A stretch of DNA of 64,000 nt from a bacterium. Its GTDB lineage: Bacteria > J088 > JAWLBW01. Made by a program: the position numbers and the translations under genes. Positions within the stretch are counted from its first letter, which is position 1; each line of letters starts with the position of its first letter. Location: the NCBI GenBank assembly GCA_041690355.1, contig JAWLHK010000018.1, forward strand, positions 1-64,000, given 5' to 3'. Of the stretch, positions 41,350-63,479 are shown in pieces. The notes beneath the pieces were generated by a model. It made no database searches. It worked only from the letters and a program-made list of their open reading frames with translations, and was not told where the DNA came from.

Positions 41350-43478
41350 CAGGGGACCTTCGGCAGGAGCACGAGAAACAGTTCCGCGCGGGGAAGCAGG
41401 CCGACCCGCAGCTTGTTCGTGTCGTTCAACGCCAGGAGAATCCCCGTGCTGTACTGGAATACCGGCGCGACGTCGGCTGCCGGCGGCGCCGGGGATGCCG
41501 GCTGTCCGTCCGCAAAGTATTCCTTCAGCCGGCGCAGCTCTTCACGCTGAAACAGCTTCGGGTCCTCGGCGGCAAGCGCGTCATATTGTTCCCGCGCGCC
41601 TGTCGTGTCTCCGCCGAGCCACGTCAGGACGAGGCGGTTCACGCGCACGAGTCCGCCGTCTTTCTCGGCCCGGGCACGCTCGAGCGCAGTCCGTGCGTCT
41701 GCGTATTCACCCCGCTGGGCAAGCAGGACGGCCGTATTGTTCCAGAGGCGGCTGCGCAGGTCGGCATCGGTCGAGGCCGTCGCCGCTCTCGCCAGCGACG
41801 CATAGGAATCGAGAAGCGACTCGCGCGCGGGGTCGCCTTCGAGCGGGAGCAGAAGTTCTGTGTCGGAAACGAGCGCCCTGAAGGCGACCTCCTGCCGTTC
41901 GGCCGCGCGCTCCCGCGCCAGCGCATGAATGCGCCGGTGTCCCTCCTGCGTGGTCCCGGGCACTTTGCGCGTCAGGGCCAGGGCCGCCTCGAGCTGGGGG
42001 CCCTCGCGCAGCCGGCGCCACTCCTCGGTGGGCGTTCCGGGCCACGTGAGGATGTCGTCGAGCGTGGCCACCGGAGCGTCGGTGAGCACGGCGGGAAACG
42101 CCTTTGCATCCCACGCGTAGGCGGAATCGGGATGGCGCGCGGCAAAGGCGGCGAGTCGCGGCGCGAACGCCTTGTGCAGGGCGGCCCGGCCGTTGCCCGT
42201 GTCCTGAATCAGATCCAGCAGGAGGTTGGTGAACTCTGATTCGGCCGACGCGAGCCCGGCAAGGCGCCCGCGCATCCGCTCGGCCACGCGCGCCAGCTTG
42301 AGGCCCGTCTCCGATTCGCGTCCGGCATGCAGCATCGTGGCCGTCGCAAAGAAGGTTACCGTGGCGACCTGCTCGGGGGTCAGGCTTTCGATGTGCTGCA
42401 ATGCGCCCAGCTGGGTGGCCAGGGCGGGAATATCCCCCTGGTTCATGGCGAGGATCGCCAGGTGGAAGTAGGCCTCGGCCCGGTCGGGTTCCCGCACGGC
42501 GAGTTCGTTCAGCAGCCTGCGCCCCTCGGCGGCATTGTCGAGTTGGTGCAGGGCGATGGCGATGGCGAGGTCGGAGTCGTACGTTTTCTCGGCGCGCCAC
42601 TCCGCAACGTGTTCGATGGTCGTTTCGGCCGACCGCAGCTGTCCGAGCGTTTCCTCGATGGAAGCCCTGTCCTCGGGCGTTGCTGATGGCAGGGCGTACT
42701 CGAGTCCGGCGATCGACTGCCGGACGCACGCAAGCTCGGCATGCTTGCGGCAGAGACCGCCGCTGAGCTGCCACAGGGCGGGGGTTGCGGCATTCGTGAG
42801 CCGCAGGATTTCGCGCGCGGTCGCGAGCACCTGCCGGTCATCTTCCTGCGCGACGGCCTGCCCGAGGATATGAAACAGGACCTCGGCCCGCAACATGTCT
42901 TCCTTCGTTTCGAGGGCTTCGAGGGCGGCGGCCGCGAACCGCGCGCCGACCCGCCGGTTCCACTCGGCTTCGTAGGCGAGAAGCTCGACGATCTCGGCTC
43001 GCGAGAGCTCCTTGCCCTCCCGGGCCTGAAATTGCGCATAGGCGCCTACGGCCCCCTGAAGACCGAATTTGCCGAGGATGCCGTACAGGAAGACCCGGGT
43101 GCGCAGCAGGCGGAGATCGGCGCCGGATTCCGCCCCGGCCCGTTCCATCTCCCAGACGGCCCAGGCAAGCTGCTCGAAGGGGAGATTGCCGTCGCCGGGC
43201 GAAAACAGCGACTCTACGTAGGGGCCGGTATGGTGCCAGGCGTTCTCGACGGGGTTTTCGGCCACGGCCGCTCGTTCAGCCGAGCGCTCGAGCTCCCACC
43301 GCTGCATGGGAGACAGCAGTTCGTTCAGAGGGCCGTTCTCCTCGGCCGCCTTTGCGCGCAGGTCTGCCTCGAGGGCGGCGTAGTCATAGTCGGCAGCGGG
43401 CAGTTCCGGCCCCGGGCGGACGGACGCAAAAGAGCAGGCGGCGAGCAGGAGCAGAGCGGTGGGAAGTACCTTGCGCAT
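41349..43478 (-). CDS. Large helical-repeat (TPR-like) lipoprotein
   Basis: Start MRKVLPTALLLLAAC with GGAG RBS; AEAYFHLA and WNNTAVLLAQRGEYADA TPR-like motifs. Confidence 0.72.
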   Translation of the reverse strand: MRKVLPTALLLLAACSFASVRPGPELPAADYDYAALEADLRAKAAEENGPLNELLSPMQRWELERSAERAAVAENPVENAWHHTGPYVESLFSPGDGNLPFEQLAWAVWEMERAGAESGADLRLLRTRVFLYGILGKFGLQGAVGAYAQFQAREGKELSRAEIVELLAYEAEWNRRVGARFAAAALEALETKEDMLRAEVLFHILGQAVAQEDDRQVLATAREILRLTNAATPALWQLSGGLCRKHAELACVRQSIAGLEYALPSATPEDRASIEETLGQLRSAETTIEHVAEWRAEKTYDSDLAIAIALHQLDNAAEGRRLLNELAVREPDRAEAYFHLAILAMNQGDIPALATQLGALQHIESLTPEQVATVTFFATATMLHAGRESETGLKLARVAERMRGRLAGLASAESEFTNLLLDLIQDTGNGRAALHKAFAPRLAAFAARHPDSAYAWDAKAFPAVLTDAPVATLDDILTWPGTPTEEWRRLREGPQLEAALALTRKVPGTTQEGHRRIHALARERAAERQEVAFRALVSDTELLLPLEGDPARESLLDSYASLARAATASTDADLRSRLWNNTAVLLAQRGEYADARTALERARAEKDGGLVRVNRLVLTWLGGDTTGAREQYDALAAEDPKLFQREELRRLKEYFADGQPASPAPPAADVAPVFQYSTGILLALNDTNKLRVGLLPRAELFLVLLPKVP

Positions 43479-43602
43479 CGAGGAGTCTCCATAGCAGAGC
43501 GGTCGGGATACTATAGCGGACCGAAGCCCCGGGGTAAAGTTCCGCCCTTCGCTCACAGGTATGCTGACACCGGCTGTCCACCGGGTGACGTACGATGTCT
43601 GC

Positions 43603-44061
43603 ATGCGCCCGTACTGGAAAACCCTTGCCGGCCGATTCCGGGGGACGGAGGTAATCGTTGCCGGCCTGTTCACGGCCATGGCCTGGGAAATCTTCCGCAC
43701 TGAGGGGCCGGCGCGGGGGCTGATTTTCGCAGCCTTCGGAATGGGGATCATGCTGCTGCGCCTGAGTGCTCCCGAGGTAGAAGCACGGACCAACCGGTGG
43801 GGCAATTATCCGGTCCTTCCCGGCCGCAAGCCAGGCGGCGGGACTCAATCCGGTTCCCGCGCCCGCCGTCAGGTCGCCATCTTTGCGCTCGCCATCCTGC
43901 CGGCCGTGCTCACCGTGCATGCGCTGCTGAACGGCGCCCCGGGCGTCGGAGACGCGGTGGGCGCCGTCGTCGCGTGCCTGCTGCTGCTCTTCGGCGGCGC
44001 GGGCGCTTTTCTGCTGCTGACGTGGATTCTCGAGCGCTTGCTGGGGGGTGGGAAAGGGTAG
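43603..44061 (+). CDS. Small 4-TM membrane protein, copy 1
   Basis: 152 aa; frame and length conserved with copy 2. Confidence 0.7.
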   Translation: MRPYWKTLAGRFRGTEVIVAGLFTAMAWEIFRTEGPARGLIFAAFGMGIMLLRLSAPEVEARTNRWGNYPVLPGRKPGGGTQSGSRARRQVAIFALAILPAVLTVHALLNGAPGVGDAVGAVVACLLLLFGGAGAFLLLTWILERLLGGGKG

Positions 44062-44086
44062 CGGCCGGACTCGCGTTCAGCCGATA

Positions 44087-44117
44087 CCCGTCTTCTTCGG
44101 GGCCGGCACGGAAGTGG
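44087..44117 (-). repeat. Short degenerate rluA 5' fragment
   Basis: cccgtcttcttcggggccggcacggaagtgg vs cccatcttcttcgggtccggcacggaattgg at 38520-38550. Confidence 0.7.
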
Positions 44118-44186
44118 TGACGAGACCTCTCCGGAGCATTGCTTATTCTCCATACCCCTATCTCAAAATATTTGAGAAAATAGTTC

Positions 44187-46493
44187 ATGCAAACGAGGTT
44201 GGATGTGAAGCGCGCCGCCTATTTTACGCTTTGTCTTGTCGTTGCTTGCACGCCCGCAAGCGAGCTCCCGATGGTTCCCGATGTATCGCAATGGTCGCAG
44301 CCGACAGAGGAAGCTGTCTCCTGGCCAAACGAAGCGGGCGCGCCAATCCCCGTACCCAACGCGTTGCGCGACCTTGATTGGCTTGCCGACCCGAGCGCCT
44401 TCGGTCACAGCGGGCCTCCAACGACTCGTGAGAAAGCGGGAAGCTTCGGCATCGGCAACGGTCGAGTGTTCGGTCTGATAGGCCTCGACGAGCCGCGCAA
44501 TACTTTAACGAACGCGATTGGCCCCGGCTACCAGATAAACGCCGGCTTCTTCGGCGACAGCTCCATCCACCTGCTTCAGGCGGGTACGGAGGCGCCGATC
44601 GAACACGAACAAGCGCAGCGGCCCCGCCGAACCGCGATTGTCAGAACGCTCGTCGCCTCCGGCGATCTTTCGGTCGAGACCACAGACGTGGCTCCCCCCG
44701 GTCACGACGTGATTATGCGATTTATCACGGTTCGGAACGCCGGTTTTATGCCCGTCGATGAATTGGCGCTGAAGATCGCTCTATCGCGGGGAAAAGAGGA
44801 GCCGGCCGCTTACAGTGTCGATGCGCTTCTTCAAGAACGCGGCCGCCACAAACTGCGTATCGAGTGTCCGAATACCGGGGCAACGGCCTACCCGTCAACG
44901 ATGACGTTTCCCGTCGGAACCCTCGGTCCGGACGAAGAAAAAAGCTTCGTATGTTGGTACCTCTTCGGCGGGGCGGCCGTTCCCACGGACTCGCCGGTTG
45001 ACTTGCTGTCTTCGTCACGAAAGCATACCGGCCGGATGCTCGACGAAGCCGTCAAACTCGAGACACCCGACCCCAAAGTCATTGATCTATACGAAGGGAT
45101 GCTCGTAACACTCGACGTGCAAACCGCCGAAAACGGCCTCGTTAGCCCGATGAACCGGTACACGTCGGGGTGGCTGCGTGACGCAGAAGGGCCAATTCGG
45201 CTGCTGCTTGCAGCCGGCCTGATTGAGCGCGCGCGTACAATTCTCGACGTGACCTACCGCTCGCTCGTCGTCTTGCATGGTATCGTGAATTCCTTTCCGC
45301 TCGATGTCGATATCTCGGGGTTTGAGGAACCTGTGGATCCCAAAACCTTTTGGGCCACCGCCGAAATGATGGGGAAATACGAAGCCGCCGAAGCGCCAAG
45401 CTACGCGACACTGCTGCATGACTTATGGATCCGTTATTCCGGCAACGAATCCATCCTGGATGCTCCGCGGATGGCCTTTTTGGAGGCGACGCTCCTTAGA
45501 CAAGAGGTGAGCGACGAAGGGCTCTTGCCCTTCAGTGGCGACGAAACCTTTCGATTCCCTTTTTTCTCCGGTAGAGGCAAGCTTCCCGAGATGGAGGGAT
45601 ACTCGGCGAACTCGTCATTTTTATTGGCGGCCGCCGCCGACCGGCTCACCGAACGCGGCGGAAGCCCCGAAGTCGCGGTCCTCGGCAAACGAGTTAGAAA
45701 AGCCGCCGAAGAGGTGTACTGGATCGCGGATGACGGATACTACGCTGCCACCGCGAGTTACGCCCACGCAAATCCTACGCCCGAGCCCTACGAAGATGTC
45801 GCGATGCAACCGCTCTGGACGGGATATGCGAAACCAAGCGAACCGAGTCAACAGCGCAACGTTAAAACCGCGCTGGATAGGCTGCTCACCGATGACACAC
45901 TCTTACACACACCGGGAACACTGACCTTCACCGGCATGGTTCCGGGTTTCCTTCTGTACAATCTCTCGCTTTTGAATCACCCCTTTGTTCATGACGCCTT
46001 TCACGCACTTGACGCTGTGGCAACCCCCTCCGGTCATTTCGAAGAAGGCCACATGCCCGATACTTCCGTGCACAGCCTGATTCACGCGCCCAACGGTCTC
46101 GGTGGTGATGCCTATGCCAGATACAGGCCTTGGGAAGGCGGCATCGTAGTGGCGGCGATGATCCACTATTTGACCGGATATCAACCTCGGGCCACATCCG
46201 CCCAGATGGATCTGGCGCCGAATCTTCCCCCTGGTTGGCACGAGACGGCCGTCCGCCAAATACGCTTTGGTAATGACTCGTTCGATTTGCAGGCCCAACG
46301 CTGGCAAGAGGGGCGAGTGGTCACAATCAGCCGAAGCGCAAACGATGGGCGAACGTGGAGGGTGCGTCTTGATCTGCGAGGTGACAAACGGTTTTCGGGC
46401 GTTTGGGTCGACGGTAATTATGTGGGCACGAGTGAAGCGGTCATGTTGCATCTCAAACCAGGCGCAAACCTGACTGTCGTAGGCGCCTACTGA
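44187..46493 (+). CDS. Lipoprotein, probable six-hairpin glycosidase-like fold
   Basis: VVAC lipobox; YTSGWLRDA (WxRD) motif; beta-rich termini. Confidence 0.55.
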   Translation: MQTRLDVKRAAYFTLCLVVACTPASELPMVPDVSQWSQPTEEAVSWPNEAGAPIPVPNALRDLDWLADPSAFGHSGPPTTREKAGSFGIGNGRVFGLIGLDEPRNTLTNAIGPGYQINAGFFGDSSIHLLQAGTEAPIEHEQAQRPRRTAIVRTLVASGDLSVETTDVAPPGHDVIMRFITVRNAGFMPVDELALKIALSRGKEEPAAYSVDALLQERGRHKLRIECPNTGATAYPSTMTFPVGTLGPDEEKSFVCWYLFGGAAVPTDSPVDLLSSSRKHTGRMLDEAVKLETPDPKVIDLYEGMLVTLDVQTAENGLVSPMNRYTSGWLRDAEGPIRLLLAAGLIERARTILDVTYRSLVVLHGIVNSFPLDVDISGFEEPVDPKTFWATAEMMGKYEAAEAPSYATLLHDLWIRYSGNESILDAPRMAFLEATLLRQEVSDEGLLPFSGDETFRFPFFSGRGKLPEMEGYSANSSFLLAAAADRLTERGGSPEVAVLGKRVRKAAEEVYWIADDGYYAATASYAHANPTPEPYEDVAMQPLWTGYAKPSEPSQQRNVKTALDRLLTDDTLLHTPGTLTFTGMVPGFLLYNLSLLNHPFVHDAFHALDAVATPSGHFEEGHMPDTSVHSLIHAPNGLGGDAYARYRPWEGGIVVAAMIHYLTGYQPRATSAQMDLAPNLPPGWHETAVRQIRFGNDSFDLQAQRWQEGRVVTISRSANDGRTWRVRLDLRGDKRFSGVWVDGNYVGTSEAVMLHLKPGANLTVVGAY

Positions 46494-49014: not shown

Positions 49015-49157
49015 CATTCAAGTTCAAACTGACAACCGTTGAGGAGTGGGGCCGTAGCGCCTTGCCAGAAAGTTATCCATATGATTAACTATTGGGGCAG
49101 ATCGATAAGGACATTTCGTTGGAATATGGGGCGGCATCCGCCTCCATGGAGACTCCC

Positions 49158-50834
49158 ATGGCACGACTACAGATCAAGAAGAACGCGATAACGGCCAAAC
49201 GAGTATTCTGGCTGGGGGTATTTCTGACGACCCTTGGGTTACAGGCATGCAGCAGCAATGTGCCGGTCGATGATTCGAGATCGAATGCGAACCCTCCCCC
49301 CACAAACCCTCCCCCCACGACGGAAGAAGAACAGAGCGACCCAACAGGAACCGAGCCAGGCTTCGGAACGGAGCTTACGGTAACACCCGCCGATATCCTG
49401 TTGCCTCGTGGTGGTGAGCTCACACTCGCCTACGAAATTTTGCCCGAAGACGACTACTCGGGAAAAGTTCAAGCGACGGTAAGTGGACTACCAGCGGGTG
49501 TCGACTACACGGCCGATGACCTGTCGGGCACTCAAAAGTCCGGCATGCTCACCTTGACGGCGACCCATGCCGCGGTGGCCGGCGAATACACGCCGAAACT
49601 CGTTCTGTCGGACGGGAACAATACATTGGAAGCCGCGATCTCCCTACGGATTCCAGCATCCGGCTCTTACGTGAAAACGTTTGGCAACGCGGGTACCGCC
49701 GATGTGACGCTTCCCCTCAGCGGTATCCGACCCGTCGATTTTGAGGTGACCAGCGATCAGAGCATCATCATTCTTTCCGCCGTACCCAATGCGTCGGGCG
49801 CGATCTACCTGCAGAAGCTCGGCCAGAATGGAATGGTCGACCCGTCGTTCGGTGAAGCCGGGCTGATGAACGATGCCAATGCCGCGGAATATACATACAG
49901 CATCAAATCGCTGAAGGTCGACTCCCTCAACAGGATCTGGGTCTTCTACCGCAGCAACTCCAACTTTGTCGTGTCTCGCTATAACGCTTCAGGCTCTGTA
50001 GATACAAGCTTTGGAACGGATGGGACCACGACGGTTAACCTTGGCCTGAATGCCTATTTTTGGGACGCCGAGTTCGCTCAGAATGGGAAGCTCCTTCTCG
50101 CCGGCAGGGTCACTTGGGAAGGCATGATCCTTCGCGTGAACGACGACGGCTCGCTTGACGACTCATTCGGTACGAACGGAAGAGTTCTCGTTGGCTACGA
50201 TACCAATGCGAAGTGCGACGGTATCGCAATCGACAGCAACGGTCGACTCACTGCGTCGTGCAATACGACCAAGCGCATTGTGAACCTCATACGACTGCAG
50301 AACGACGGCAATATCGATACGTCGTTCGGTTACGCAGGTTACGTGCCCCTTACCGAAGATACAAACATCGATTCGTCGCTCGAAATTGACGGCGACGATC
50401 GCATCTATTACAGCACCGTGTACGAAGGGAAAAAAGCGCTGACGATTCAACGCTTCATGCCCAACGGGATCACGGATGCGACCTATGCGAACGCAGGAAC
50501 ATTTACGGCCGACACCACGGGCAGTGATTACGTGTACCCCTACTGGCACACCCATCTGGCACTCGATGGCGAGAACAACGCGTACGTCGTGTCGGGAAGT
50601 CCAGACAGCGCGGACTGGAACTTCGAACGTGGCTGGCTGTTCAAAGCCCTTGCTGACGGCACAAGCGATATGCAATTTGGCACGTCCGGAAAGGTGTGGA
50701 TCGATAGCTTCGACCCCAGCCTTTACTGGGTCGAGATCCTGCAGTTAGCCATTGCCGGCGATAAACTCCTCGTCCTCGAAGCACAGTTAGACAGCCAGCC
50801 TTACGGCGGCACGATACACGCTTTCTGGAAGTAA
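49158..50834 (+). CDS. Lipoprotein with delta-60-type beta-propeller repeats
   Basis: LQAC lipobox; repeated G.(V/L)D.SFG..G motifs. Confidence 0.8.
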   Translation: MARLQIKKNAITAKRVFWLGVFLTTLGLQACSSNVPVDDSRSNANPPPTNPPPTTEEEQSDPTGTEPGFGTELTVTPADILLPRGGELTLAYEILPEDDYSGKVQATVSGLPAGVDYTADDLSGTQKSGMLTLTATHAAVAGEYTPKLVLSDGNNTLEAAISLRIPASGSYVKTFGNAGTADVTLPLSGIRPVDFEVTSDQSIIILSAVPNASGAIYLQKLGQNGMVDPSFGEAGLMNDANAAEYTYSIKSLKVDSLNRIWVFYRSNSNFVVSRYNASGSVDTSFGTDGTTTVNLGLNAYFWDAEFAQNGKLLLAGRVTWEGMILRVNDDGSLDDSFGTNGRVLVGYDTNAKCDGIAIDSNGRLTASCNTTKRIVNLIRLQNDGNIDTSFGYAGYVPLTEDTNIDSSLEIDGDDRIYYSTVYEGKKALTIQRFMPNGITDATYANAGTFTADTTGSDYVYPYWHTHLALDGENNAYVVSGSPDSADWNFERGWLFKALADGTSDMQFGTSGKVWIDSFDPSLYWVEILQLAIAGDKLLVLEAQLDSQPYGGTIHAFWK

Positions 50835-50883: not shown

Positions 50884-51525
50884 ATGTCGACCTGCCAACC
50901 ATTCGCGATCATGCGACTCACCCATGAGGCCATCCGCAGAGGACTCGAAGCTCTGGAGCAGACGGCCGAAAACAAAGCCCCGGTCGAAGACCTGGAAAGT
51001 GCCTTTCAGTCGGTCTGGAACTGCATCCAGCTTCATGCCGCCCAGGAAGACAAGGTCTTCTATGGCGCACTGGAAGAACGGCACCCGGGCTTAACCGCAC
51101 CTTTCACGCAAGAGCACGATGCCGAGGCCAAGCAGATTGAGTTCATCGAGAAGCGCCTGAAGTCGTCTCAGCACGATGCCGAGGTCGCGCCCGAGCTCTA
51201 CGCGGACATTCTCTCCTTCATTCAAACCCACCGCGAACATTTGAAGCACGAAGAAGAAATTCTCATGGAGCTTCTCCCCAGGACCTTTACCTATCCCGAA
51301 TCGGTCGAGGTCGTACGCAAGATCCTCGCCTACGACATGCCGGTCTACCGCGAAATCGCCCCTTGGATTCTGGCTCGTCTCCAGGGCGGCCAGCGTGAAA
51401 CCTATCTTGGCATGGTGCAAGGTTGTTGCGCCAAAGAAGACTTGCCAGATGTACTGGAAAGCCTGAAGCCAGTCATGAGCAAGACTGAAGTGGAAGAATT
51501 ACAAGCGGTCGGCCGAATCGGGTAG
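50884..51525 (+). CDS. Hemerythrin (HHE) domain protein
   Basis: HEAIRR, LHAAQEDKVFY, EH and HREHLKHEEE ligand pattern. Confidence 0.88.
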   Translation: MSTCQPFAIMRLTHEAIRRGLEALEQTAENKAPVEDLESAFQSVWNCIQLHAAQEDKVFYGALEERHPGLTAPFTQEHDAEAKQIEFIEKRLKSSQHDAEVAPELYADILSFIQTHREHLKHEEEILMELLPRTFTYPESVEVVRKILAYDMPVYREIAPWILARLQGGQRETYLGMVQGCCAKEDLPDVLESLKPVMSKTEVEELQAVGRIG

Positions 51526-51548
51526 CCGGCTCAGAAAGAGGAATTTTC

Positions 51549-52943
51549 ATGTCAGAAACAACCGGCCACATCCTAACAAGCCTGGGCGAAACCGCCGCCC
51601 GGAATCTCGCCGACGTCACCAAGACACGCGCCAACATGGGCATCATCAGCCCGCGTTGGCTGTTGCGGATGTTGCCTTGGGTCGACGTTGAAGCCGGGAT
51701 GTACCGCGTCAACCGCGTACGCGTGGTCGGCGAGGAGTTCAGTCGTCTTGACCCTACGCTATTGCGTGAAACCCGTAAACCCTCAGCGAATCACCTGAAG
51801 TCGATTCCCCTCTTCCGTCACTTTTTGGATTCTGATCTCGAGGAACTTGCCAATGGGTTTCGCACCCGAGAGGTAGCACAATACGACGATATCCTCACCG
51901 AAGGCGAAGCCGGCGACGAGATGTGTCTCATCGTCGCCGGGAAAGTTGAAGTCTACCGCCAAAGCCCATCGGGAGAGCGGGCCGTACTCAACGTTCTCGG
52001 TTCAGGTGCGCATTTTGGTGAAGTCGCACTGCTTCGTGATGAACCACGCAATGCAAGCGTTCGAGCCATCACCCCGGCTACGTTACTTTCTATCGATAAA
52101 AAGTCATTTCAGAAGCTCCTGAAAAGAAACCCCCAACTGAAAGCCGCTGTCGAAGAGACCGCGGCCTACAGAACCGGGAAAGAAGAAGTCAGTGTCAATC
52201 TCACGACCGTCAATGCTGAAACGGAAGTCTCGTCGACGTTCGTTGACTATGAAGAAAATCCGAGACTGATCACGCTTTCTTCGATCACGACGACCCTGCG
52301 TGTGCAAACCCGGGTCATGGACCTCTATAAACAGCCCTACGACCAACTCCAGGAGCAGGCTCGCCTGGTCATCGAAGCGATCAAGGAGCGCCAGGAGTGG
52401 GAGTTGATCAACAATCCCGGTTTCGGCCTCTTCGCAAACGTCAGCGCTGCCATGCGAACACCGACCCGCTCGGGTCCGCCTACGCCCGAGGGCATGGATG
52501 AGCTGCTTTCGAAGGTCTGGAAAGAGCCGGCTTTCTTTCTGGCCCACCCGAGAGCCATCGCCGCATTCGGACGCGAGTGTACCGCCCGTGGCGTACCACC
52601 ACCTACGGTGACGTTGTTTGGGTCACCCTTTCTGACCTGGCGCGGAGTGCCATTGGTACCTTCAGACAAGATGCCCATTGACTTCAGCAGCGGTGTGCCC
52701 AAAACCAGGATCCTTCTCATGCGCGTGGGTGAAGAGAGGCAGGGCGTGGTCGCGCTTCGCCAGGCGAACGTCGGCGACGAGCGAATGCCCAGTATCGCGA
52801 TCCGCTTCAACGGTGTCGATCAAAACGCCGTCGCTAACTATCTTGTAAGCGCCTACTTTGCCCTGGCCACCTTGTCAGATGATGCGGTAGGGGTCTTGGA
52901 TGAGGTGGAGATCGGTCATTACTACGATAATGCAGGCAACTGA
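51549..52943 (+). CDS. Family 2B encapsulin shell protein (SrpI-like with inserted cNMP-binding domain)
   Basis: SLGETAARNLA..TK, RWLLRMLPWVDVEAGMYRVNR, insert with FGEVALL..PRNASV, TFVDYEENPR, LAHPRAIAAFGRECT.RGVPP, WRGVPLVPSDK. Confidence 0.92.
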   Translation: MSETTGHILTSLGETAARNLADVTKTRANMGIISPRWLLRMLPWVDVEAGMYRVNRVRVVGEEFSRLDPTLLRETRKPSANHLKSIPLFRHFLDSDLEELANGFRTREVAQYDDILTEGEAGDEMCLIVAGKVEVYRQSPSGERAVLNVLGSGAHFGEVALLRDEPRNASVRAITPATLLSIDKKSFQKLLKRNPQLKAAVEETAAYRTGKEEVSVNLTTVNAETEVSSTFVDYEENPRLITLSSITTTLRVQTRVMDLYKQPYDQLQEQARLVIEAIKERQEWELINNPGFGLFANVSAAMRTPTRSGPPTPEGMDELLSKVWKEPAFFLAHPRAIAAFGRECTARGVPPPTVTLFGSPFLTWRGVPLVPSDKMPIDFSSGVPKTRILLMRVGEERQGVVALRQANVGDERMPSIAIRFNGVDQNAVANYLVSAYFALATLSDDAVGVLDEVEIGHYYDNAGN

Positions 52944-54535
52944 TGCTCGAAAGGGATGAAGGCAAAGAAGGCGTAGAGCAAGAGGAGGTTCAGGCCCTCG
53001 CCGAATCTCTGCGTCTCCATCTTGGGAGTCTTCAACCATCCGCCGACCACGGAACCGCGGTGCCGGAGGCGAGTACGACCTCCGGTCTGCAGAGGGTACG
53101 GTTTCCAGAGACGCTTCTACGCAGTCAAGCCTCCGCAAAGGACGAGTACTACTGGCTTCGAACGCCTTCCCTCGAGAGGATCGCCCCCATCCAGACGCCG
53201 GAATACTTTCCCCACCGCAATGAGCCCTCACCAGAGATACTGCCACCGGTAGAACACGCGAGAGGCAGGCAGCCTGACCGACAGCGAGCCGACGGGCCAC
53301 CCTTAACGGGATCCCGCGGCCTGCGCGCTAGAACGGGAGCATCGGTGCGAGAAGACTTTCCGGCCTTGAACCAGAAGGTCAACGGTCATCCACTTGTATG
53401 GCTCGACAACGGCGCGACGACACAAAAGCCGAACGAAGTCATCGAGGCCGTGAACGCCTTTTATCGGTTCGACAATTCCAATGTTCATCGCGGCGCGCAT
53501 ACCCTTGCCGCCCGTGCAACCGATGCGTACGAGAATGCCCGCGAGCGGGTTCGCGCTTTTCTCGGCGCGGCAAGTTCAGAAGAGGTCGTTTTCGTAAGGG
53601 GCACGACCGAGGCCATCAATCTCGTCGCACAGTCATGGGGAGCGGCCAATGTCTCAGCAGGAGATGAGATTCTTGTCTCCCAGCTCGAGCACCATTCGAA
53701 CATTGTTCCGTGGTTCGAACTTTGCCGCCGTGTTGGAGCCAGGCTCCGCGTCATTCCCGTCGATGACGACGGGAACATTGATCTCGAATCCTATGGGCGA
53801 ATGCTTAATTCCCGGACCAGGCTCGTCGCCCTTACTCAGGTCGCCAACGCCATCGGCACGGTGCTACCCATCGGGCTGATGGCCCAGATCGCCAAAACGC
53901 ACGGCGCAACCGTTCTGGTCGACGGAGCGCAGTCGATTGCGCATTTACCGGTGAATGTTGCCTGTCTCGATATCGACTTCTTCGCGTTCTCAGGTCACAA
54001 AATCTACGGACCCACCGGCATTGGCGTGCTGTGGGCGCGAAAGGGCATTCTCGAGTGCATGCCCCCATGGCAGGGCGGCGGAAGCATGATTCGCGACGTC
54101 ACCTTCGAGCGAATCGAGTACGCATCCCTGCCCGCACGCTTTGAAGCGGGAACGCCAAACCTGGCTGGTGCCGTCGGTCTCGGTAGTGCCCTCGCGTATG
54201 TCGTGCAACTGGGGCGAGTGGCAATTGCGGCGCATGAACACGAACTCCTGAACCGCCTTCTCGAGCGGCTACGAAACCTCCCGCATGTGACAACGATAGG
54301 CGCACCATTCACGCAAGCTGGTGCTGTATCGTTCGTTGTCGAGGGTCACGACCCGCAAAAGGTCGGGAAGTACTTGAACAGCCGTGGCATAGCCGTACGC
54401 GCGGGGCATCACTGCGCCCAGCCCACCCTGCGGCGCTTCGGCTACGAAGCCTCCGTACGTGCCTCCGTTGGAGTTTACAACGACGAAGAGGATATCGACA
54501 TGCTTCTGTCGGCACTGAGATCGCTGAAGCCATAA
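52943..54535 (+). CDS. SufS-type cysteine desulfurase with ~130-aa N-terminal extension (encapsulin cargo)
   Basis: WLDNGATTQKP, NVHRGAH, FSGHK and RAGHHCAQP motifs; TGATG coupling to the encapsulin. Confidence 0.93.
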   Translation: MLERDEGKEGVEQEEVQALAESLRLHLGSLQPSADHGTAVPEASTTSGLQRVRFPETLLRSQASAKDEYYWLRTPSLERIAPIQTPEYFPHRNEPSPEILPPVEHARGRQPDRQRADGPPLTGSRGLRARTGASVREDFPALNQKVNGHPLVWLDNGATTQKPNEVIEAVNAFYRFDNSNVHRGAHTLAARATDAYENARERVRAFLGAASSEEVVFVRGTTEAINLVAQSWGAANVSAGDEILVSQLEHHSNIVPWFELCRRVGARLRVIPVDDDGNIDLESYGRMLNSRTRLVALTQVANAIGTVLPIGLMAQIAKTHGATVLVDGAQSIAHLPVNVACLDIDFFAFSGHKIYGPTGIGVLWARKGILECMPPWQGGGSMIRDVTFERIEYASLPARFEAGTPNLAGAVGLGSALAYVVQLGRVAIAAHEHELLNRLLERLRNLPHVTTIGAPFTQAGAVSFVVEGHDPQKVGKYLNSRGIAVRAGHHCAQPTLRRFGYEASVRASVGVYNDEEDIDMLLSALRSLKP

Positions 54536-54543
54536 GAGCCATT

Positions 54544-57500
54544 ATGAAGAGACATTTGATTCTGGTTGCCTCAGCGCTTGTGCACTATGCGTGTTCGGCA
54601 GAGCTGGAACACCAAGGCCCCTTCGATCCCATGACCGACGCGGCGAAGCAGGCGCCCGCCGAGGTCTCGGGCAAAATTACGCTTGAAGGAGAGTCAGACT
54701 ACGCGGGGGTGAACATCCTCTTTTCGGGGCCAACCGAAAAGTCAACCGTGACCCTGGCCGACGGTTCTTTCTCCACGAACGGTTTAGTTCCCGGACGCTA
54801 TCGAATTACCTACTCTGCACGCGGATTTCAGGAGATCAGCCAGGTTCTGGAACTCTCACTCGGTGAGCGTCTCGAGCTGCCGACCGGCGGATTGGCGCTA
54901 CGTACGGCCACCGTTCGCGGTGAAATCAAATCAGACGACGAGAGCCTGCTTGACGTTACAGGCAGCCAAATCAGAATCCGGCGCATCTACGGTCCGCGAG
55001 CAAGCAGCCAAGCCGGCCCCGCGCTCCGTAGGTCAGCGGAGGTTTTGGACGACGACGAAGACTCCTTCACTGACTTTACGACCGTCGACTCCGATGGGAC
55101 ATACGAATACGACGGCGTTAAGGCCGGCACCTACACGATGATCGTCAAACAAGAGGGTGCCGTTTCGACGGAAACCGAGTTCAACGTTTCCGGTGAGACC
55201 GAAGATGTCACCGTCAAACCGCAGGTCATCAAGCCGCTCTCGGGCGTTTTTTCAATCCGCGGGACCCTGCGCGACGGCTCCGTCTCGCTCGCCTATACGG
55301 TGACCCGTGACGTGACGGTCCTTGCAACGGCTTACAATGCATCGTTTGTGCAGCTTGGCGAAGATAGAGGCAACGGTTGCATCTACGGTATCGATCAGGA
55401 ACTCGAGGCGGCCATGGACATTCGACTATCGGCCGGCGATGGACTGAAGACGGCATGCATGCGACTGAAAGACAACGCGGGAGCATCGAGCCCCGACATC
55501 CGTTCGACGATCTTTCTCGACGCCACTCCGCCGACTGTGCCGTTTCTGGAACTGAATGGCGGCCGCGAGTACACAACTGACGACATCGTAACGGCCGAGG
55601 TCTTTGCCAGTGATACCGGCGCGGGGGTGCATCGCATCCACTACCGCTTCGGAGCGGCCACGACGTCAACGATCAACTACGTTCCGTCGTTCATTCACGG
55701 CTTGACGCAGGAAGGCGAGCAAGACTTATGGTTACAGGTCGAGGACCGGGCAGGAAACCTCTCTTTGCCGTATGTGATTCCCCTGAGGTACGACGGCACG
55801 CCACCGATCTCCCCTGCCGTCGAAATTCTCGGTAGCGAGGGCGTCGCGCTGCGAACGGCCAGAGAAATCGTCACCCTGCAACTCAGCTACCCCGATGACG
55901 CAGCAGAGATGCGGCTTTCGAACCTGGCCGACCTGTCGGGCGTGCCATGGCAAGCGGTTACCCCTTCTTTACCCTGGCAGCTCTATTCAGGCGACGGCGT
56001 CAAAACCGTATACGTTCAGGTACGGGATGAGGCCGGGAACGCGAGCGCCATATCGGCGGCGACGATTACCCTCGATCAATCGCCCCCCGAGACGCCGGCG
56101 TTACAGGTCTTCGACATCGACGGAGACGGTTTTGCCCTCTCATCCACCCGCGTCGAGCTCCGCTGGAGTCAGGCGATCGAAGGTGATCTCGCCTCCTATG
56201 AGCTTCAGGTTTTCGTCGAAGGCTTGTCGACCTCTTTCGTCGCCGAGGCGACACCCGGTCCCTCACAGTTCGAATACGCGAGCGATGTGTCGATGACGAC
56301 CGGCTACACGCACAACTACCGCGTTCGGGCTGCCGACGATCTCGGGAATACGTCAGCCTGGTCCAACATTGCCATCGCAAAGCCATTCGATCCGGTGGGT
56401 GTCGTGTGCAGTGTGGAGGCCGGTCCGGACCAATTTTCGCTGGGATGGTCACCGGGGGTTGGCACCTACACGATTGAATCCACGCTTTCAAAGCGAAACG
56501 CATTCGGCACAGCTACGTTTACGGATCTCACGGCGAATCAGGTTTTTGCCGGATACGCCGCCCCGTTTGCCCTTCCGGAGCAGGCGATGGATTACGAGCT
56601 GATCCTTCGGCAGTCGAACCAAGACAACAGCCTCAGCTACCGGAGCACGTTCGATGCACCCGGCCCCTACCGAAAGCGGCTCGGTGCCGGTGGCTTGTAC
56701 GTCGCCATTGAAATGGATTTGGCGGGGGCGATCCATATCGGCCATTGGGATCTGTACAAAAACGACCTCCTGTACACGACGAACAAAGGCGGCGAATGGG
56801 TTACCGAGTCCGTCGAGTCGGCCGGCAGAGTTGGTGAATATGCCGACATGACCCTTGATGCACATGGGTACGCCCATTTCAGCTACTACGACGGCTATCC
56901 GAATAACGATTTAAAGTACGCCACAAATGCCTCCGGAAGCTGGCAGGTTTATACGGTGGATGCGACGGGCACGACCGGCTGGCAGACCTCGATCGCCGTC
57001 GACAGCCAAGGCGCCGCGCATGTCAGCTACCACTATCAAACCGAGAACGACCTCCGCTACGCGACGAATGAATCGGGGAGCTGGCAGAGCTATACGTTGG
57101 ATACGGCTGGCAATACAGGTCAATATTCATCCATCGTCGTCGATTCGGATGACCGAATTCATATTGGCTATCTCAACGTGGACCAGAACCGGCTCTATTA
57201 CGCGACCAACAAGAGCGGCGGCTGGACCCGCGAATTAATCGGTCCCGCTTCGATCTATACAAATATGGCGGTAGATGGAGAAGGGGGGCTGCACATCGCC
57301 TATGAGTACGACAGCCAGATTTGGTACGCCGAGAACACGACTGGAACGTGGACGAGACAAGCCGTAGACCCGAGCGTGAGCGTGGGTCGAGACCCTGGAA
57401 TTGCCCTGGACCTGCAGGGCAGGGTCTTCATCACCTATAGAGATTACGGCAATGATAGCCTCAAGCTTGCGACCAACCTTTCCGGCGGCTGGGAAAACGC

Positions 57501-58647
57501 AACGCTCGACGCTTCGGCTCGAAGCGGTCAGCATTCGTCAATTGCGCTTGATCGAGCCGGTCGGCTTCATATCGCCTACAGTGAAGATGACGGCTACCTT
57601 CGTTACCTCAACACCGCGCCCGGCGTGTACGAAAAGACCATCGTACACGCCACGGGTGACGCGGGAGAAATGTCGTCGTACGCACGGGCGGCGACAGGGG
57701 TAGAGTTCATTGCCTACTACCAGGCGTCGGGCCAGAACCTTCGTTTTGCCTCGAACGTTACCGGGGTATGGGAACACCGCCTGCTGGATGGAGACGGCGA
57801 GGTAGGCTGGTTTCCGTCCTTGGCCGTCGACGCCGACGGTCTTCCTCACGTCGCCTACTACAAAATGAGCCAAGCCCTCAAGTACGCGACGGCAACCTCT
57901 AGCGGCGTTTGGAGCATTGAAGTTGTCGACGATAGCGCTGATGCAGGCCGTGGAGCCTCGCTTGCATTGGACTCGACCGGGGCCGCGCATATCAGTTATC
58001 ACGATTTTGATGCGAAAGATTTGAAATATGCCACGAACGCATCCGGCAACTGGGTGATTACGACCCTCGAGTCCTCTGGAAACGTCGGCTACTTCACGTC
58101 TATTGCCGTCGACAACCAAGATAACGTGTATATTGCCTACCAGCACCCTGGTTACAAGGAACTCCGGTACGCCACCAATCGGGGAGGATCGTGGTCGTTC
58201 ACAACCATCGATAGCAACGGGGATGCCGGCTGGGCGCCCCAGCTCGTGCTGGACGAGAACGACACGCCACATATTTCCTACCACGTGTGGCCGGGCGAAA
58301 CTCGCTACGCAACGCTGCGAGGAGGAGGCTGGCAGATTGAAAGTCTAAATGACCTTGTGGGGAACACGGCGATTTACTCGTCCATCGCTGTTTCCGGCGG
58401 ACGCATCGGCGTGGCCGTCGAAAGCTTGGACCTCGGCGGACTCGTCTTCGTGGAAAAAGGTACGGGCCGCTGGACTGCCCATGTCATGGACATTGAAAAA
58501 GGCGGCGCCCCATCCCTTGAATTTGTGAATTTCGACGCAGCCTACCTCTCCTACTACGATAGGAATGCCAGAGACCTGAAATATTTATCCTTTCACTACC
58601 AATGCAGCGAAGCAAAGCAGGTTGAGCGAATCGGCCCGTTCGACTGA
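54544..58647 (+). CDS. Giant surface lipoprotein: carboxypeptidase-regulatory-like, Ig/Fn3-like and beta-propeller repeats
   Basis: Leader ending HYAC; VRDEAGN/VEDRAGN Ig-like motifs; many L(K/R)YATN.SG.W repeats. Confidence 0.78.
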   Translation: MKRHLILVASALVHYACSAELEHQGPFDPMTDAAKQAPAEVSGKITLEGESDYAGVNILFSGPTEKSTVTLADGSFSTNGLVPGRYRITYSARGFQEISQVLELSLGERLELPTGGLALRTATVRGEIKSDDESLLDVTGSQIRIRRIYGPRASSQAGPALRRSAEVLDDDEDSFTDFTTVDSDGTYEYDGVKAGTYTMIVKQEGAVSTETEFNVSGETEDVTVKPQVIKPLSGVFSIRGTLRDGSVSLAYTVTRDVTVLATAYNASFVQLGEDRGNGCIYGIDQELEAAMDIRLSAGDGLKTACMRLKDNAGASSPDIRSTIFLDATPPTVPFLELNGGREYTTDDIVTAEVFASDTGAGVHRIHYRFGAATTSTINYVPSFIHGLTQEGEQDLWLQVEDRAGNLSLPYVIPLRYDGTPPISPAVEILGSEGVALRTAREIVTLQLSYPDDAAEMRLSNLADLSGVPWQAVTPSLPWQLYSGDGVKTVYVQVRDEAGNASAISAATITLDQSPPETPALQVFDIDGDGFALSSTRVELRWSQAIEGDLASYELQVFVEGLSTSFVAEATPGPSQFEYASDVSMTTGYTHNYRVRAADDLGNTSAWSNIAIAKPFDPVGVVCSVEAGPDQFSLGWSPGVGTYTIESTLSKRNAFGTATFTDLTANQVFAGYAAPFALPEQAMDYELILRQSNQDNSLSYRSTFDAPGPYRKRLGAGGLYVAIEMDLAGAIHIGHWDLYKNDLLYTTNKGGEWVTESVESAGRVGEYADMTLDAHGYAHFSYYDGYPNNDLKYATNASGSWQVYTVDATGTTGWQTSIAVDSQGAAHVSYHYQTENDLRYATNESGSWQSYTLDTAGNTGQYSSIVVDSDDRIHIGYLNVDQNRLYYATNKSGGWTRELIGPASIYTNMAVDGEGGLHIAYEYDSQIWYAENTTGTWTRQAVDPSVSVGRDPGIALDLQGRVFITYRDYGNDSLKLATNLSGGWENATLDASARSGQHSSIALDRAGRLHIAYSEDDGYLRYLNTAPGVYEKTIVHATGDAGEMSSYARAATGVEFIAYYQASGQNLRFASNVTGVWEHRLLDGDGEVGWFPSLAVDADGLPHVAYYKMSQALKYATATSSGVWSIEVVDDSADAGRGASLALDSTGAAHISYHDFDAKDLKYATNASGNWVITTLESSGNVGYFTSIAVDNQDNVYIAYQHPGYKELRYATNRGGSWSFTTIDSNGDAGWAPQLVLDENDTPHISYHVWPGETRYATLRGGGWQIESLNDLVGNTAIYSSIAVSGGRIGVAVESLDLGGLVFVEKGTGRWTAHVMDIEKGGAPSLEFVNFDAAYLSYYDRNARDLKYLSFHYQCSEAKQVERIGPFD

Positions 58648-59596: not shown

Positions 59597-60607
59597 TCAT
59601 GGCAGCTCTGTCGGCCATGTTGCGGCATAGACCTGACGACAAACTACATCCCATGCATTCCAGTCTTTCTTACGCGGAGCTCCTGGGATGCCCCAGTATC
59701 CGTCACCGGGCATTTTGTCGGTCTCCGAAACCACGATACTACTGATGGGAGGAAGCGCGTGCTCGGTGCAGCGCCGACTAACCTGGCCCAACGGGGTACC
59801 CCATCTCCTCCGCTCAACCCTGACATCAGCCCTTACGAAGTAGGCGTCCGAAAGTTCCTGATAGGTGATCGTGTCCTTTGTTCGGACAATTGTAAGGAGA
59901 ATCTCGTAGACAACATTCAGATCAACATGCGACTCGGGGGGTGCGCCCTCAACTCGCTCTCTTCCATTGGGCTTTGACGGGGGCTGGTTCGTATGTTGAG
60001 ACCCGTGCGACGCAGCCATTGGTTGGAGTGGAATCGGGCGCTCTAGCGGTGGGAGACCTGGCACGGCTGGATGTTGCAGCTGCGAGGCGTCTCGATAGGC
60101 CCGTTCGTAGCGCGCCAGCCATGAGTCGTCTGGTTCGACGCCGGCACCCCACGCTTCATCGAACACGTTGACCAGACTACGAATAACCTCGTTGCCTTGG
60201 GGACCCGCAAGCATCAGGTTGACCTCGGTGTTCTCGCCGAAGCCACCAGACGTGAAGTTGCTCGATCCAATGACGATACGCGTAGTGGAACCGTTGCTTG
60301 CGACGAGCAGCTTCGGATGAAAAACTCCGCCAGCTTGGTGAATCACACGAAGCACACGGAGTGCGTGTAGTTGTCGGAGGACGAACGGCTCGGTACGGTT
60401 GAAGTGAACGCCGAGGATCGCCCTGCGCACCTTTCCGAGCGGCAGAGCCTTCCAGTGATTTGCAGTACCTTCGCCGGAGGAGGCCCAAGCGTAGGCCAGG
60501 TCGATATAGCTCGACCAATCCGCGACGCCACGGAGTGCGGCAACCAACTCGACCTCCGTAGCGAGAACCTCAACTGAAAGCACGTTGCTGACTCCTTTTC
60601 GCTGCAT
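59597..60607 (-). CDS. Phospholipase D-family (NgoFVII/BfiI-like) nuclease domain plus C-terminal domain
   Basis: FHPKLL...IGSSNFTSGGFGENTEVN; Pro-rich linker; start uncertain. Confidence 0.82.
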   Translation of the reverse strand: MQRKGVSNVLSVEVLATEVELVAALRGVADWSSYIDLAYAWASSGEGTANHWKALPLGKVRRAILGVHFNRTEPFVLRQLHALRVLRVIHQAGGVFHPKLLVASNGSTTRIVIGSSNFTSGGFGENTEVNLMLAGPQGNEVIRSLVNVFDEAWGAGVEPDDSWLARYERAYRDASQLQHPAVPGLPPLERPIPLQPMAASHGSQHTNQPPSKPNGRERVEGAPPESHVDLNVVYEILLTIVRTKDTITYQELSDAYFVRADVRVERRRWGTPLGQVSRRCTEHALPPISSIVVSETDKMPGDGYWGIPGAPRKKDWNAWDVVCRQVYAATWPTELP

Positions 60608-60744
60608 GGAGTGCCGACCTACTCAGGGAGGAAGTTCCGGTCTGCCCAAGTTCCAGGTCGCCGGCGGCGGCCCCGCGGTATCCCAAATTTACCTCATCGC
60701 TAAGCAGGCCGCAGTCCGCATGAAGTAGGCTTGTTAGAGTGAGA

Positions 60745-62343
60745 CTATATGAGTGCACTTTCTGCGGGTGGGATGTCGTCAACCTCAGAGACGGACAATG
60801 GGGCATCTTCATCTGGTGGATTGAACACGTCTAGATACTGATGAAGCGTCATTTTCTTTCTAGTTTCAATGCAATCCCGAAACAATCCGAAATCGGCGCG
60901 GTCCGTGAACAGGGCGTTCTGATTTAAGAAAGTCATTCGAGTCAGAGGGTCTCGAAGCTCTGGCTTTCGCTTAAGGTAGCCATGAAGGTTATTGCTGGTA
61001 ATGAAATAAGATATCCACGTTATAAGATATTTATTCCGTTGTTCGTCACGAGAAAGAGCGATTAAGTAGTCTTCGAGATGCGCAACAATCGTTGCATGTC
61101 GTTGTGATTTAGCGGAACTTGGAAGCAGAGCCTCTAAAATTGCTAGAACCTTTGGAAAGGACTTGGTGCGAAGTCGCGCCATCATGAAAAGCATGCTGAT
61201 TATATTTTCGGTCTGGCCACCGGCCAGTGAAACCTTGAGACTTCCATCGGCAGTCACAATGTCTGCGAGGAACCGATCGATTACGCCCGTGCCTGGATAC
61301 TCGCGGTCTATCCGTAGGACAGCTAAATACAGCTCTCTGAACTCCTTCCAGGTGTAGCTTCGACGCGGCCTCGGAAGAGCTAGATGATACATAGAAACCC
61401 AAGGTCTAAATAACCCATCTGGCAATGACGAAATCGTTGTCTTTTCTTCTCCAAGTTCTAGGTTAAAGGTTTTCAGCGCTGTCTGCAGGTGCTTCACAAC
61501 TTCAACCGCATCGCTTTCGGACTGTACGAGTATTCTATAATCGTCCTTAAACCTTACCGCCTGGCACCGGATTTTGCTCTTGCGCAGTTGCTTTGAAAAA
61601 ACGAGATCTACAGCTGCAGCCAACACTTCGGCAATGACGTCCGAGACAACCGGGCCGATTGGGATACCGTTTGTGCAACCATCGTTGGCGTTCTGGAACA
61701 AACTGTCCAGCTTGTTCCCTATAAGCGAGAAGTCGCGGAGATTATGCTTGGCGCGGACGAAATCTTTTCCGTGAATCGCCCAAGCGATAGTATGTGTGTA
61801 GATTGACCGGTAATAGTTTCGGATGTCAGCCTTCACAATATGTGAATATTCGTATGCTACCGAGACGAGTTGGTCTTCGGCCACCCGTATATACTCATAA
61901 ATCGCGCGACCCGAGCGAAGCTTGTTGAGGCGTCCTGGGTGTCTCGAGTCGATTGGGATCGGGAAGCTATAGCATACTACGTCACTCTCCGCTGGCAGCA
62001 TAGCATCGACAATTTGCGCCCAGTTCGAGGTGAGAGCGATGACTATGTCATGGTGGACTAGCGGGTCAATGATGCCGAAAGTGCGGTCAGTTAGTCTTGT
62101 CTTAGGAAAATGAATCGTTGCACACTCTGTGCGCTCTGGTTTGTATTTCCCATTCTCTTTAACGATAAAGTAAGGCCGTCCAGTTTGAGGGTGCTTCACA
62201 ACCGTAAAACACGGGGGTAGGACATAGGACTCCGGGAAATAGCCATTCCTTAGAAGCCAGTTTTGAAGAGGCCGTTCTTCGAGGGCAAGTGCTAGCTCCC
62301 GAGTTTGCTCATGATACTGGCGAAGGCGATTGATTGGATCCAT
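60745..62343 (-). CDS. Reverse transcriptase of the UG/Abi (DRT) class, possibly DRT4-like
   Basis: NGYFPESYVLPPCF, KADIRNYYRSIYTHTIAWA, GIPIGPVVSD, RFKDDY; helical C-terminus. Confidence 0.9.
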   Translation of the reverse strand: MDPINRLRQYHEQTRELALALEERPLQNWLLRNGYFPESYVLPPCFTVVKHPQTGRPYFIVKENGKYKPERTECATIHFPKTRLTDRTFGIIDPLVHHDIVIALTSNWAQIVDAMLPAESDVVCYSFPIPIDSRHPGRLNKLRSGRAIYEYIRVAEDQLVSVAYEYSHIVKADIRNYYRSIYTHTIAWAIHGKDFVRAKHNLRDFSLIGNKLDSLFQNANDGCTNGIPIGPVVSDVIAEVLAAAVDLVFSKQLRKSKIRCQAVRFKDDYRILVQSESDAVEVVKHLQTALKTFNLELGEEKTTISSLPDGLFRPWVSMYHLALPRPRRSYTWKEFRELYLAVLRIDREYPGTGVIDRFLADIVTADGSLKVSLAGGQTENIISMLFMMARLRTKSFPKVLAILEALLPSSAKSQRHATIVAHLEDYLIALSRDEQRNKYLITWISYFITSNNLHGYLKRKPELRDPLTRMTFLNQNALFTDRADFGLFRDCIETRKKMTLHQYLDVFNPPDEDAPLSVSEVDDIPPAESALI

Positions 62344-62353
62344 CCGGACTTCC

Positions 62354-63205: not shown

Positions 63206-63479
63206 AAAGCTAAGGGTAGCAGGAGGAGCCCCTTCGGTCTAACATCCATTGACCGGCCCCTCGCCGCCTTCCAACCCGGCGGGCGCCAGTCGAACGGTCG
63301 ACAGCGTTTGTCTCTCCCCCGGCAGGCAGGGCGAATTGGTACGCGACGGGCAGGATGCGATACGGCTTTCGTGCCAACACTATACCGAGCGACCGCTCTG
63401 GTAAGCAACCCAGCGATAGGGAGCCCACGCGGGGCTGGGGAAGGGGAACACTGTGACCGCGCGCCGCGCGGGCCGAGAC

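Follow-up and report, generated by a model that had tools for sequence, protein, structure and literature searches.

A predicted family 2B desulfurase encapsulin with a canonical cyclic-nucleotide-binding cassette, next to a hemerythrin-like gene, in a rarely sampled bacterial lineage

The window analysed here is a stretch of 64,000 nucleotides of bacterial DNA (contig JAWLHK010000018.1, positions 1 to 64,000, of assembly GCA_041690355.1; GTDB lineage Bacteria; J088; JAWLBW01), and our subject is a row of three open reading frames (ORFs) on its forward strand, at 50884-51525 (213 aa), 51549-52943 (464 aa) and 52943-54535 (530 aa). They encode a hemerythrin-like protein, an encapsulin shell protein and a cysteine desulfurase, the latter a putative cargo. 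An earlier note, made from the letters alone, had read the trio as one operon for a cyclic-nucleotide-regulated sulfur-storage compartment linked to O2/NO/iron sensing. The three genes, the 23-bp gap and the TGATG overlap that it described are all found in the ORF list and in the letters of the junctions. The hemerythrin gene ends with TAG at 51523-51525 and is followed by a spacer of 23 bp, in which a Shine-Dalgarno-like GAAAGAGGA (51534-51542, +), read directly, lies 6 nt ahead of the shell start codon, an ATG at 51549. The shell and desulfurase genes share one base in TGATG (52941-52945). From this arrangement, the hemerythrin and shell genes are probably co-transcribed.

The shell gene (51549-52943, +) codes for an HK97-type fold with an inserted cyclic nucleotide monophosphate (cNMP) binding domain. 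Its product is recognized by the NCBIfam model NF041163, ‘family 2B encapsulin shell’, with 516.5 bits (cut-off 400) over model positions 1-450. In Pfam, it matches PF19307, the SrpI-like family 2 shell domain, over residues 207-456 (E 3.5e-96) and PF00027 (cNMP_binding) over residues 108-194 (E 2.6e-24), and these are its only domains, no DNA-binding domain being detected there. The closest solved chains are 8t6r (354.9 bits, on the HK97 part) and 9bje (350.7 bits, full length), and the shell would form an icosahedral cage. The same protein also exceeds the cut-off of the 2A model (417 bits vs 380). Moreover, when only its HK97 part is compared, identity to the 2A shells of Proteobacteria and cyanobacteria on plasmid records (H12-H35) is 49-61%, whereas identity to the 2B shells of 74 related loci is lower, 44-48%. 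These values hint that the cNMP domain was gained or lost more than once, and families 2A and 2B are perhaps not cleanly separate clades. Closer shells, at 55-68% identity, were retrieved in the protein search, and their sources name some of them as Bauldia sp., Casimicrobiaceae and Alphaproteobacteria metagenome-assembled genomes (MAGs). Full-length matches reach at best 47% identity on plasmid records and 45% in a sample of 401 genomes. Viral contigs gave no matches, either with the shell alignment or with that of the hemerythrin.

The inserted domain covers about residues 76-205 of the shell (51774-52163, +; PF00027). In a search with the isolated domain as query, the binding domains of cGMP- and cAMP-dependent (cyclic GMP and cyclic AMP) kinases were reached at E 4e-32 to 1e-20, and the 2B chain 9bje at only 9.3e-11. 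Alignment with homologues places the phosphate-binding cassette FGEVALLRDEPRNAS at residues 156-170 (52014-52058, +), with Gly157, Glu158, Arg167 and Ala169; the cNMP insert of the earlier note is borne out together with its two motifs, FGE at residues 156-158 and PRNA at 166-169. The G-E-R-A pattern is present in 37 of the 38 shell homologues at >=55% identity, and the cassette arginine in 92 of the 119 listed shell homologues. In contrast, of 82 shell ORFs from 75 surveyed Planctomycetota, Bacteroidales and Chlorobiaceae loci, 79 have Ser at the Arg167 position, with a motif of the FGE...PSDVT or ESTVS type. The cassette of 9bje is likewise degenerate, without the Gly-Glu pair and without arginine at the aligned position. 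On the alignments, then, the 2B desulfurase shells are split into a canonical-cassette and a degenerate-cassette group, and the window shell belongs to the canonical subclade. Since its cassette is canonical, binding of a cyclic nucleotide by the window shell is plausible. The residue following Arg167 is Asn, where the aligned kinase chains have Thr or Ser. Nine class III cyclase domains are encoded in the genome, along with numerous further cNMP-binding proteins. According to a review, a 2B shell of the terpene type did not bind nucleotide at the bench (PMC12746231).

The third gene (52943-54535, +) encodes a cysteine desulfurase of the SufS type, as indicated by PF00266 (E 1.4e-139), TIGR01979 (540 bits, cut-off 475) and the solved SufS 8kg1, which aligns with residues 134-528 (E 2.5e-149). 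The stretches SGHK and RAGHHCA are readable in the sequence and would hold the pyridoxal phosphate (PLP) lysine and the catalytic cysteine of SufS enzymes. No family model covers the first ~127-133 residues. This N-terminal extension, residues 1-133 (52943-53341, +), is a feature not found in housekeeping SufS and represents a putative cargo-loading domain. All 64 other full-length desulfurases listed beside related shells have one, from 71 to 678 residues long, the longest being perhaps an overlong ORF call. At residues 69-72 the extension carries YYWL (53147-53158, +), which resembles ‘AASPYYFLDG’, named by Nichols et al. 2021 (PMC8049743) as the second of two motifs conserved among the loading domains of 2A cargo. 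Counting the query and its top relatives, 110 sequences have an extension of at least 60 aa, and 42 of these show a motif of the form [YFW][YF][FWY]L; in Chlorobiaceae loci it appears as EPYYFLRE. Judged by eye, residues about 14-27 show a weak likeness to a helix of the ‘LARLANEFFS’ type. A second SufS-like gene is present on another contig (499.8 bits), so that the housekeeping role need not fall to the copy in the window.

The association of this shell with a desulfurase extends well beyond the window. Among the matches listed, 74 related shell loci were available, from Planctomycetota, Bacteroidales, Chlorobiaceae and one Geobacter MAG. The desulfurase gene comes next after the shell gene in 70 of them, and the remaining four loci end 372-1281 bp past the shell. 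The desulfurases closest to that of the window are 54-67% identical to it. Ten contig sizes are common to the 120 best shells and the 120 best desulfurases, including that of the 40057-bp contig for both Bauldia proteins, and the pairing therefore also holds in the nearest shell clade. Such operons have been described: Andreas and Giessen 2021 (PMC8346489) count 1281 desulfurase-cargo operons of family 2A and 199 of family 2B, the latter in 9 phyla, with the internal cNMP-binding domain as the feature that parts 2B from 2A. Thus, shell and desulfurase constitute an already catalogued operon type and not a new one. Curated models above their cut-offs and the loading-type extension uphold the family 2B shell and desulfurase pair of the earlier note. 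Beside its remark that desulfurase cargo is best characterised with 2A shells, which have been studied at the bench, stand those 199 catalogued 2B operons.

The window locus has the same plan as the catalogued 2B desulfurase operons, in which a shell with internal cNMP domain is directly followed by a desulfurase of the SufS type whose N-terminal extension is unannotated. It differs from them by the hemerythrin gene upstream and by the lack of sulfur-assimilation or sulfur-relay genes nearby. Compared with the 2B desulfurase loci listed, its shell is distant, as the identities above show, and keeps the cassette arginine that nearly all of those have lost. Neither rhodanese, serine acetyltransferase nor cysteine synthase domains were found in the called window ORFs, scanned at >=90 aa from 35.6 kb onward and at >=100 aa before that; the absence of the first two had been rightly noted from the letters. 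Genes recurring near the other 2B pairs encode PALP/cysteine-synthase-type proteins (37 loci), a Cys/Met PLP enzyme (34), DsrE_2 (31), ThiF (20), JAB-domain proteins (14) and hexapeptide acetyltransferases (10), as well as TusA, ThiS and rhodanese-YgaP. In several Bacteroidales loci (L012, L043, L045, L049, L070, L082 and others), the pair is accompanied by DsrE_2, TusA, ThiS, ThiF, JAB, cysteine-synthase-type and Cys/Met PLP enzymes, and in the Chlorobiaceae 2B loci its companions are a response regulator of the LuxR type and an acetyltransferase. The host phylum counts only four other genomes in the collection searched.

Close relatives are the 2A systems SrpI/CyD of Synechococcus elongatus (6x8m) and that of Acinetobacter baumannii (8t6r), to both of which the window shell aligns with 336-355 bits. 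Their cargo, too, is an enzyme of the SufS type, and the loading domain at its N-terminus carries a YYFL-type motif. Unlike the window shell, 2A shells have no cNMP domain, and 2A operons are enriched in the rhodanese and serine acetyltransferase genes that are absent here. The window extension is also shorter, 133 residues against about 225 in 2A, and does not match the N-terminal half of the 2A cargo model. In the 2A desulfurase system, cysteine enters, alanine leaves and sulfur is kept as elemental sulfur inside the shell (PMC10836720). A third group consists of 2B-type shells with terpene-related cargo (9bje, 9bhu, 9bix), such as the 2-MIB encapsulin treated in the review PMC12746231. They share the full-length domain layout of the window shell (310-351 bits), whereas the type of cargo differs and, at least for 9bje, a degenerate cassette replaces the canonical one.

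Taken together, we consider it likely that the second and third genes form a family 2B desulfurase encapsulin and that the hemerythrin gene is a co-transcribed stray neighbour. In this proposal, copies of the 464-aa shell protein would assemble by themselves into a cage resembling a capsid, each with its cNMP-binding domain set into a loop at the surface. The 133-residue N-terminal extension with YYWL would serve to bring the desulfurase into the cage. Once enclosed, the enzyme would strip sulfur from cysteine, and the sulfur would be stored inside the shell, in analogy with the 2A systems. Assembly, loading, sulfur storage and a response to cyclic nucleotides are all steps that we infer from such likenesses. 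The hemerythrin-like protein would be a lineage-specific neighbour, outside the system.

The hemerythrin-like protein (50884-51525, +; 213 aa), putatively no more than the product of an adjacent gene, matches PF01814 with E 1.6e-11 and 45.2 bits (cut-off 25.3). An alignment of 40 relatives shows no variation at His14, His51, Glu55, His78, His119 and Glu123, which make up a diiron ligand pattern of the HHE type. Its AlphaFold2 model is confident (predicted local distance difference test, pLDDT, 95.9; predicted TM-score, pTM, 0.92) and helical over residues 8-208, every 10-residue block as well as the final 3 residues having a mean pLDDT of at least 82. The best sequence match in the PDB is the hemerythrin domain of FBXL5 (3v5x, 3u9j; E 7e-7). 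Foldseek gave no match at E <= 0.001 for the model; its top ranks are the bacterial hemerythrin-like 6q09 and also 2p0n and 3cax, with TM-scores normalised to the target (TMt) of 0.70-0.74 for 6q09 and 2p0n. The family is composed of stand-alone proteins of about 200-216 residues, nine homologues at 39-51% identity being found in a word-indexed search. When 1.84 billion representatives were searched exhaustively with a profile, there were 19 matches at E <= 1e-30, rising to 144 at E <= 1e-10 and to 815 at E <= 1e-3. The weaker matches include long, BRUTUS-like proteins with three hemerythrin domains and CHY and RING zinc fingers. FBXL5 and BRUTUS are iron/oxygen sensors. FBXL5/BRUTUS-like proteins share the ligand pattern, whereas the window protein is a stand-alone bacterial one with ~70 extra C-terminal residues in five short helices. 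From sequence and model, it is credible that it is a diiron four-helix-bundle protein of an FBXL5/BRUTUS-like, sensor-like lineage. The O2/NO/iron sensing of the earlier note can be retained at the level of the hemerythrin family's reputation and not beyond. In the 10-sequence alignment of the family, two cysteines stand out: Cys4 (50893-50895, CQPF motif) is nearly invariant and Cys181 (51424-51426, GC(S/C) motif) is invariant. Two homologues at 40-44% identity, on L087 (1-1774) and L088 (1-1167), lie beside Crp-type cNMP-binding genes.

A link between this protein and the shell was sought in several ways. In the related shell loci, tblastn found this hemerythrin in 0 of 74. Neighbouring ORFs of >=90 residues, from four genes upstream to three downstream of the shell-desulfurase pair, were collected from 75 loci, which gave 348 ORFs in 161 clusters. 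Pfam was run on 150 representatives (24 multi-member clusters and 126 of 137 singletons, standing for 337 of the 348 ORFs, with 11 singletons at position -4 omitted), and PF01814 was found in none of them at E <= 1e-4. The hemerythrin family profile, at E <= 1e-5, is absent from four genomes and one record carrying 2B shells. Conversely, no shell was found on six metagenome contigs with hemerythrin homologues; four of them (L084, L085, L088, L089) are long enough downstream to judge, and the other two end 35-103 bp past the homologue. The nearest relative genome, of the same family and 97% complete, has no shell and gives the hemerythrin family profile at 27 bits only. It shows no synteny with the window either: it has no delta-60 neighbour such as that described below, and what it matches of the 1367-aa protein encoded downstream is limited to the repeats.

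Published surveys were consulted as well. In seven supplementary files of Nichols et al. (PMC8049743), 13,046 characters in all, PF01814 does not occur. The tables of Andreas and Giessen (PMC8346489) contain it 46 times; four passages correspond to rows of FLP, hemerythrin or DyP cargo, all of them family 1 cargo types, and a family 2 row is possible among the others. The same source lists 45 family 1 systems with hemerythrin cargo, in agreement with the earlier note on this point. In these family 1 encapsulins a hemerythrin gene also stands beside the shell gene, but the shell family differs, and their cargo loads via short C-terminal targeting peptides (PMC8346489). Compared with that cargo, the window protein is peculiar by its 213 residues, its extra C-terminal helices and a fold that runs almost to the end. 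Family 2 cargo described so far is loaded by long disordered terminal domains (PMC8346489, PMC10836720). The hemerythrin has no YY[FW]L motif and no disordered loading domain, its model being folded throughout. Complex prediction of shell and hemerythrin scored 0.00 in both runs, made without controls, and counts neither way.

The promoter and terminator scan of 47.5-59.5 kb yielded two promoter-like and twelve terminator-like sites, not above shuffled sequences, and none of them in the relevant gaps. A 580-aa delta-60-repeat protein gene (49092-50834, +) stops 49 bp upstream of the hemerythrin gene. On the other side, the gene of a 1367-aa surface-type protein (54544-58647, +) begins 8 bp downstream of the desulfurase stop; this protein has carboxypeptidase-regulatory, OmpL47-type and beta-propeller repeat domains, and its type has dozens of repeat-level matches in genomes of the same phylum. 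As the tight packing runs on into these unrelated surface-protein genes, spacing by itself is no sign that the three genes work together. With 0 of 74 shell loci, no shell at six homologue loci and no structural support, the link of the hemerythrin to the compartment advanced in the earlier note is not sustained; that note had named lack of conservation beside homologous shells as a ground for refutation, and in the related 2B shell neighbourhoods surveyed hemerythrin is not conserved. Within the same range, it appears to be neither a conserved component nor a cargo of the family 2 type, but a lineage-specific neighbour.

Certain observations nevertheless weigh against our reading. On the side of the compartment, no bench experiment on any 2B desulfurase system was found in the literature searched. 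The window desulfurase also stays under the cut-off of NF041166, the ‘2A cargo desulfurase’ model (686.8 bits vs 800), which it matches at model positions 223-623 only, because its extension is unlike the 2A extension; this model was made for 2A cargo, and its score thus has no bearing on cargo status in a 2B system. On the side of the hemerythrin, the 23-bp gap and the good ribosome-binding site favour co-transcription with the shell, and operon partners are often functionally related. The homologue on L087 lies 17 bp after a gene for a rhodanese-YgaP membrane sulfurtransferase, with a Crp-type cNMP-binding gene adjoining, which distantly recalls the themes of sulfur and cNMP. For the closest shells (55-68% identity), the absence of hemerythrin rests on contig-size matching, which is blind to short contigs and to unrelated hemerythrins. 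In that comparison, the 14 contig sizes of hemerythrin homologues share no value with the 120 best desulfurases and one with the 120 best shells, against the ten that shells and desulfurases have in common. This one value, 2956 bp, belongs to hemerythrin homologue P0015 and shell P0176, which come from different sources, and may be a coincidence.

Some of these points lend themselves to another interpretation, which we regard as unlikely: in the lineage of the window, the hemerythrin could be an accessory protein, outside the shell or at its surface, that tunes or complements sulfur release as a diiron O2, iron or redox sensor or as an iron donor. It would account for a gene on the same strand, 23 bp away, with a Shine-Dalgarno sequence ahead of the shell gene. 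The invariance of all six metal ligands, the conservation of Cys4 and Cys181 and a nearest solved sequence relative in the iron/oxygen-sensing FBXL5 domain, with BRUTUS-like hemerythrin-CHY-RING proteins as distant relatives, would fit a protein of this kind. So would the homologue on L087 beside rhodanese and Crp-type genes, and the relative genome without shell and without the hemerythrin family is compatible with joint gain or loss. On the other hand, hemerythrin is not conserved with shells wherever we looked, in loci and genomes directly and by contig-size matching indirectly, and the other 2B desulfurase loci have sulfur-relay genes instead (DsrE_2, TusA, ThiS/ThiF, cysteine synthase). 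The gene spacing, being equally tight towards unrelated surface-protein genes, brings little weight.

A second cargo inside the shell is a much less probable role for the hemerythrin. Its C-terminus extends about 18 residues beyond all nine aligned homologues, and a tail that the relatives do not have could serve for loading, hemerythrin being a known cargo in 45 family 1 systems (PMC8346489). However, most of this tail is confident helix (residues 200-208), which leaves ~5 residues free in a model of pLDDT 95.9. Both the long disordered terminal domain of family 2 cargo and YY[FW]L are missing, and here again the lack of conservation with shells argues against the idea. A loading motif shared by the desulfurase extension and the hemerythrin tail was considered and rejected, the two having only a loose acidic-helix likeness by eye.

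Finally, we give almost no credence to a reading in which the shell gene codes for a regulator of the Crp kind, or is what remains of a phage capsid gene, with an ordinary SufS beside it. In its favour, the sources call close homologues ‘CRP-like cAMP-binding protein’, and the reverse transcriptase, Abi_C and PLD-like genes not far away give the region the look of a variable island. Against it, the protein fits the 2B equivalog model from end to end and scores above the cut-off, reaches ~350 bits with solved encapsulin chains and has no DNA-binding domain in Pfam; the pairing with the desulfurase is conserved and the extension of the latter is foreign to housekeeping SufS.

Concerning the genomic setting, the surrounding 30 kb are mostly made of orphan ORFs. 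At 59597-63483 (-) there is a row of four ORFs, of 336 aa (PLD-like), 532 aa (reverse transcriptase, PF00078), 283 aa (with an Abi_C domain) and 93 aa, which looks like a defence-type cluster. With such genes amid orphan ORFs, the region has, by its gene content, the appearance of a variable island. Further upstream, Pfam recognises nothing at E <= 1e-4 in three large ORFs at 39115-46493, which are 744, 818 and 768 aa long; those of 744 and 818 aa lie on the - strand and overlap by one base.

Judging from its genes, the window adds a genuine desulfurase encapsulin of family 2B from a lineage that has seldom been sampled. That a nucleotide-binding desulfurase encapsulin has here recruited a hemerythrin partner, be it an O2, iron or redox sensor, an iron donor or a co-cargo with a short tail, seems to us rather improbable; if true, it would tie sulfur release from the cage both to a second messenger and to the iron/oxygen status of the cell. 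More generally, the window shell bears on the question of the role of the cNMP-like domain in 2B desulfurase encapsulins. This shell and its ~38 closest relatives keep the canonical cassette, which the Planctomycetota, Bacteroidales and Chlorobiaceae clade and 9bje have lost. A subclade in which a canonical cassette is kept would be a sensible place to ask whether a second messenger gates any encapsulin.

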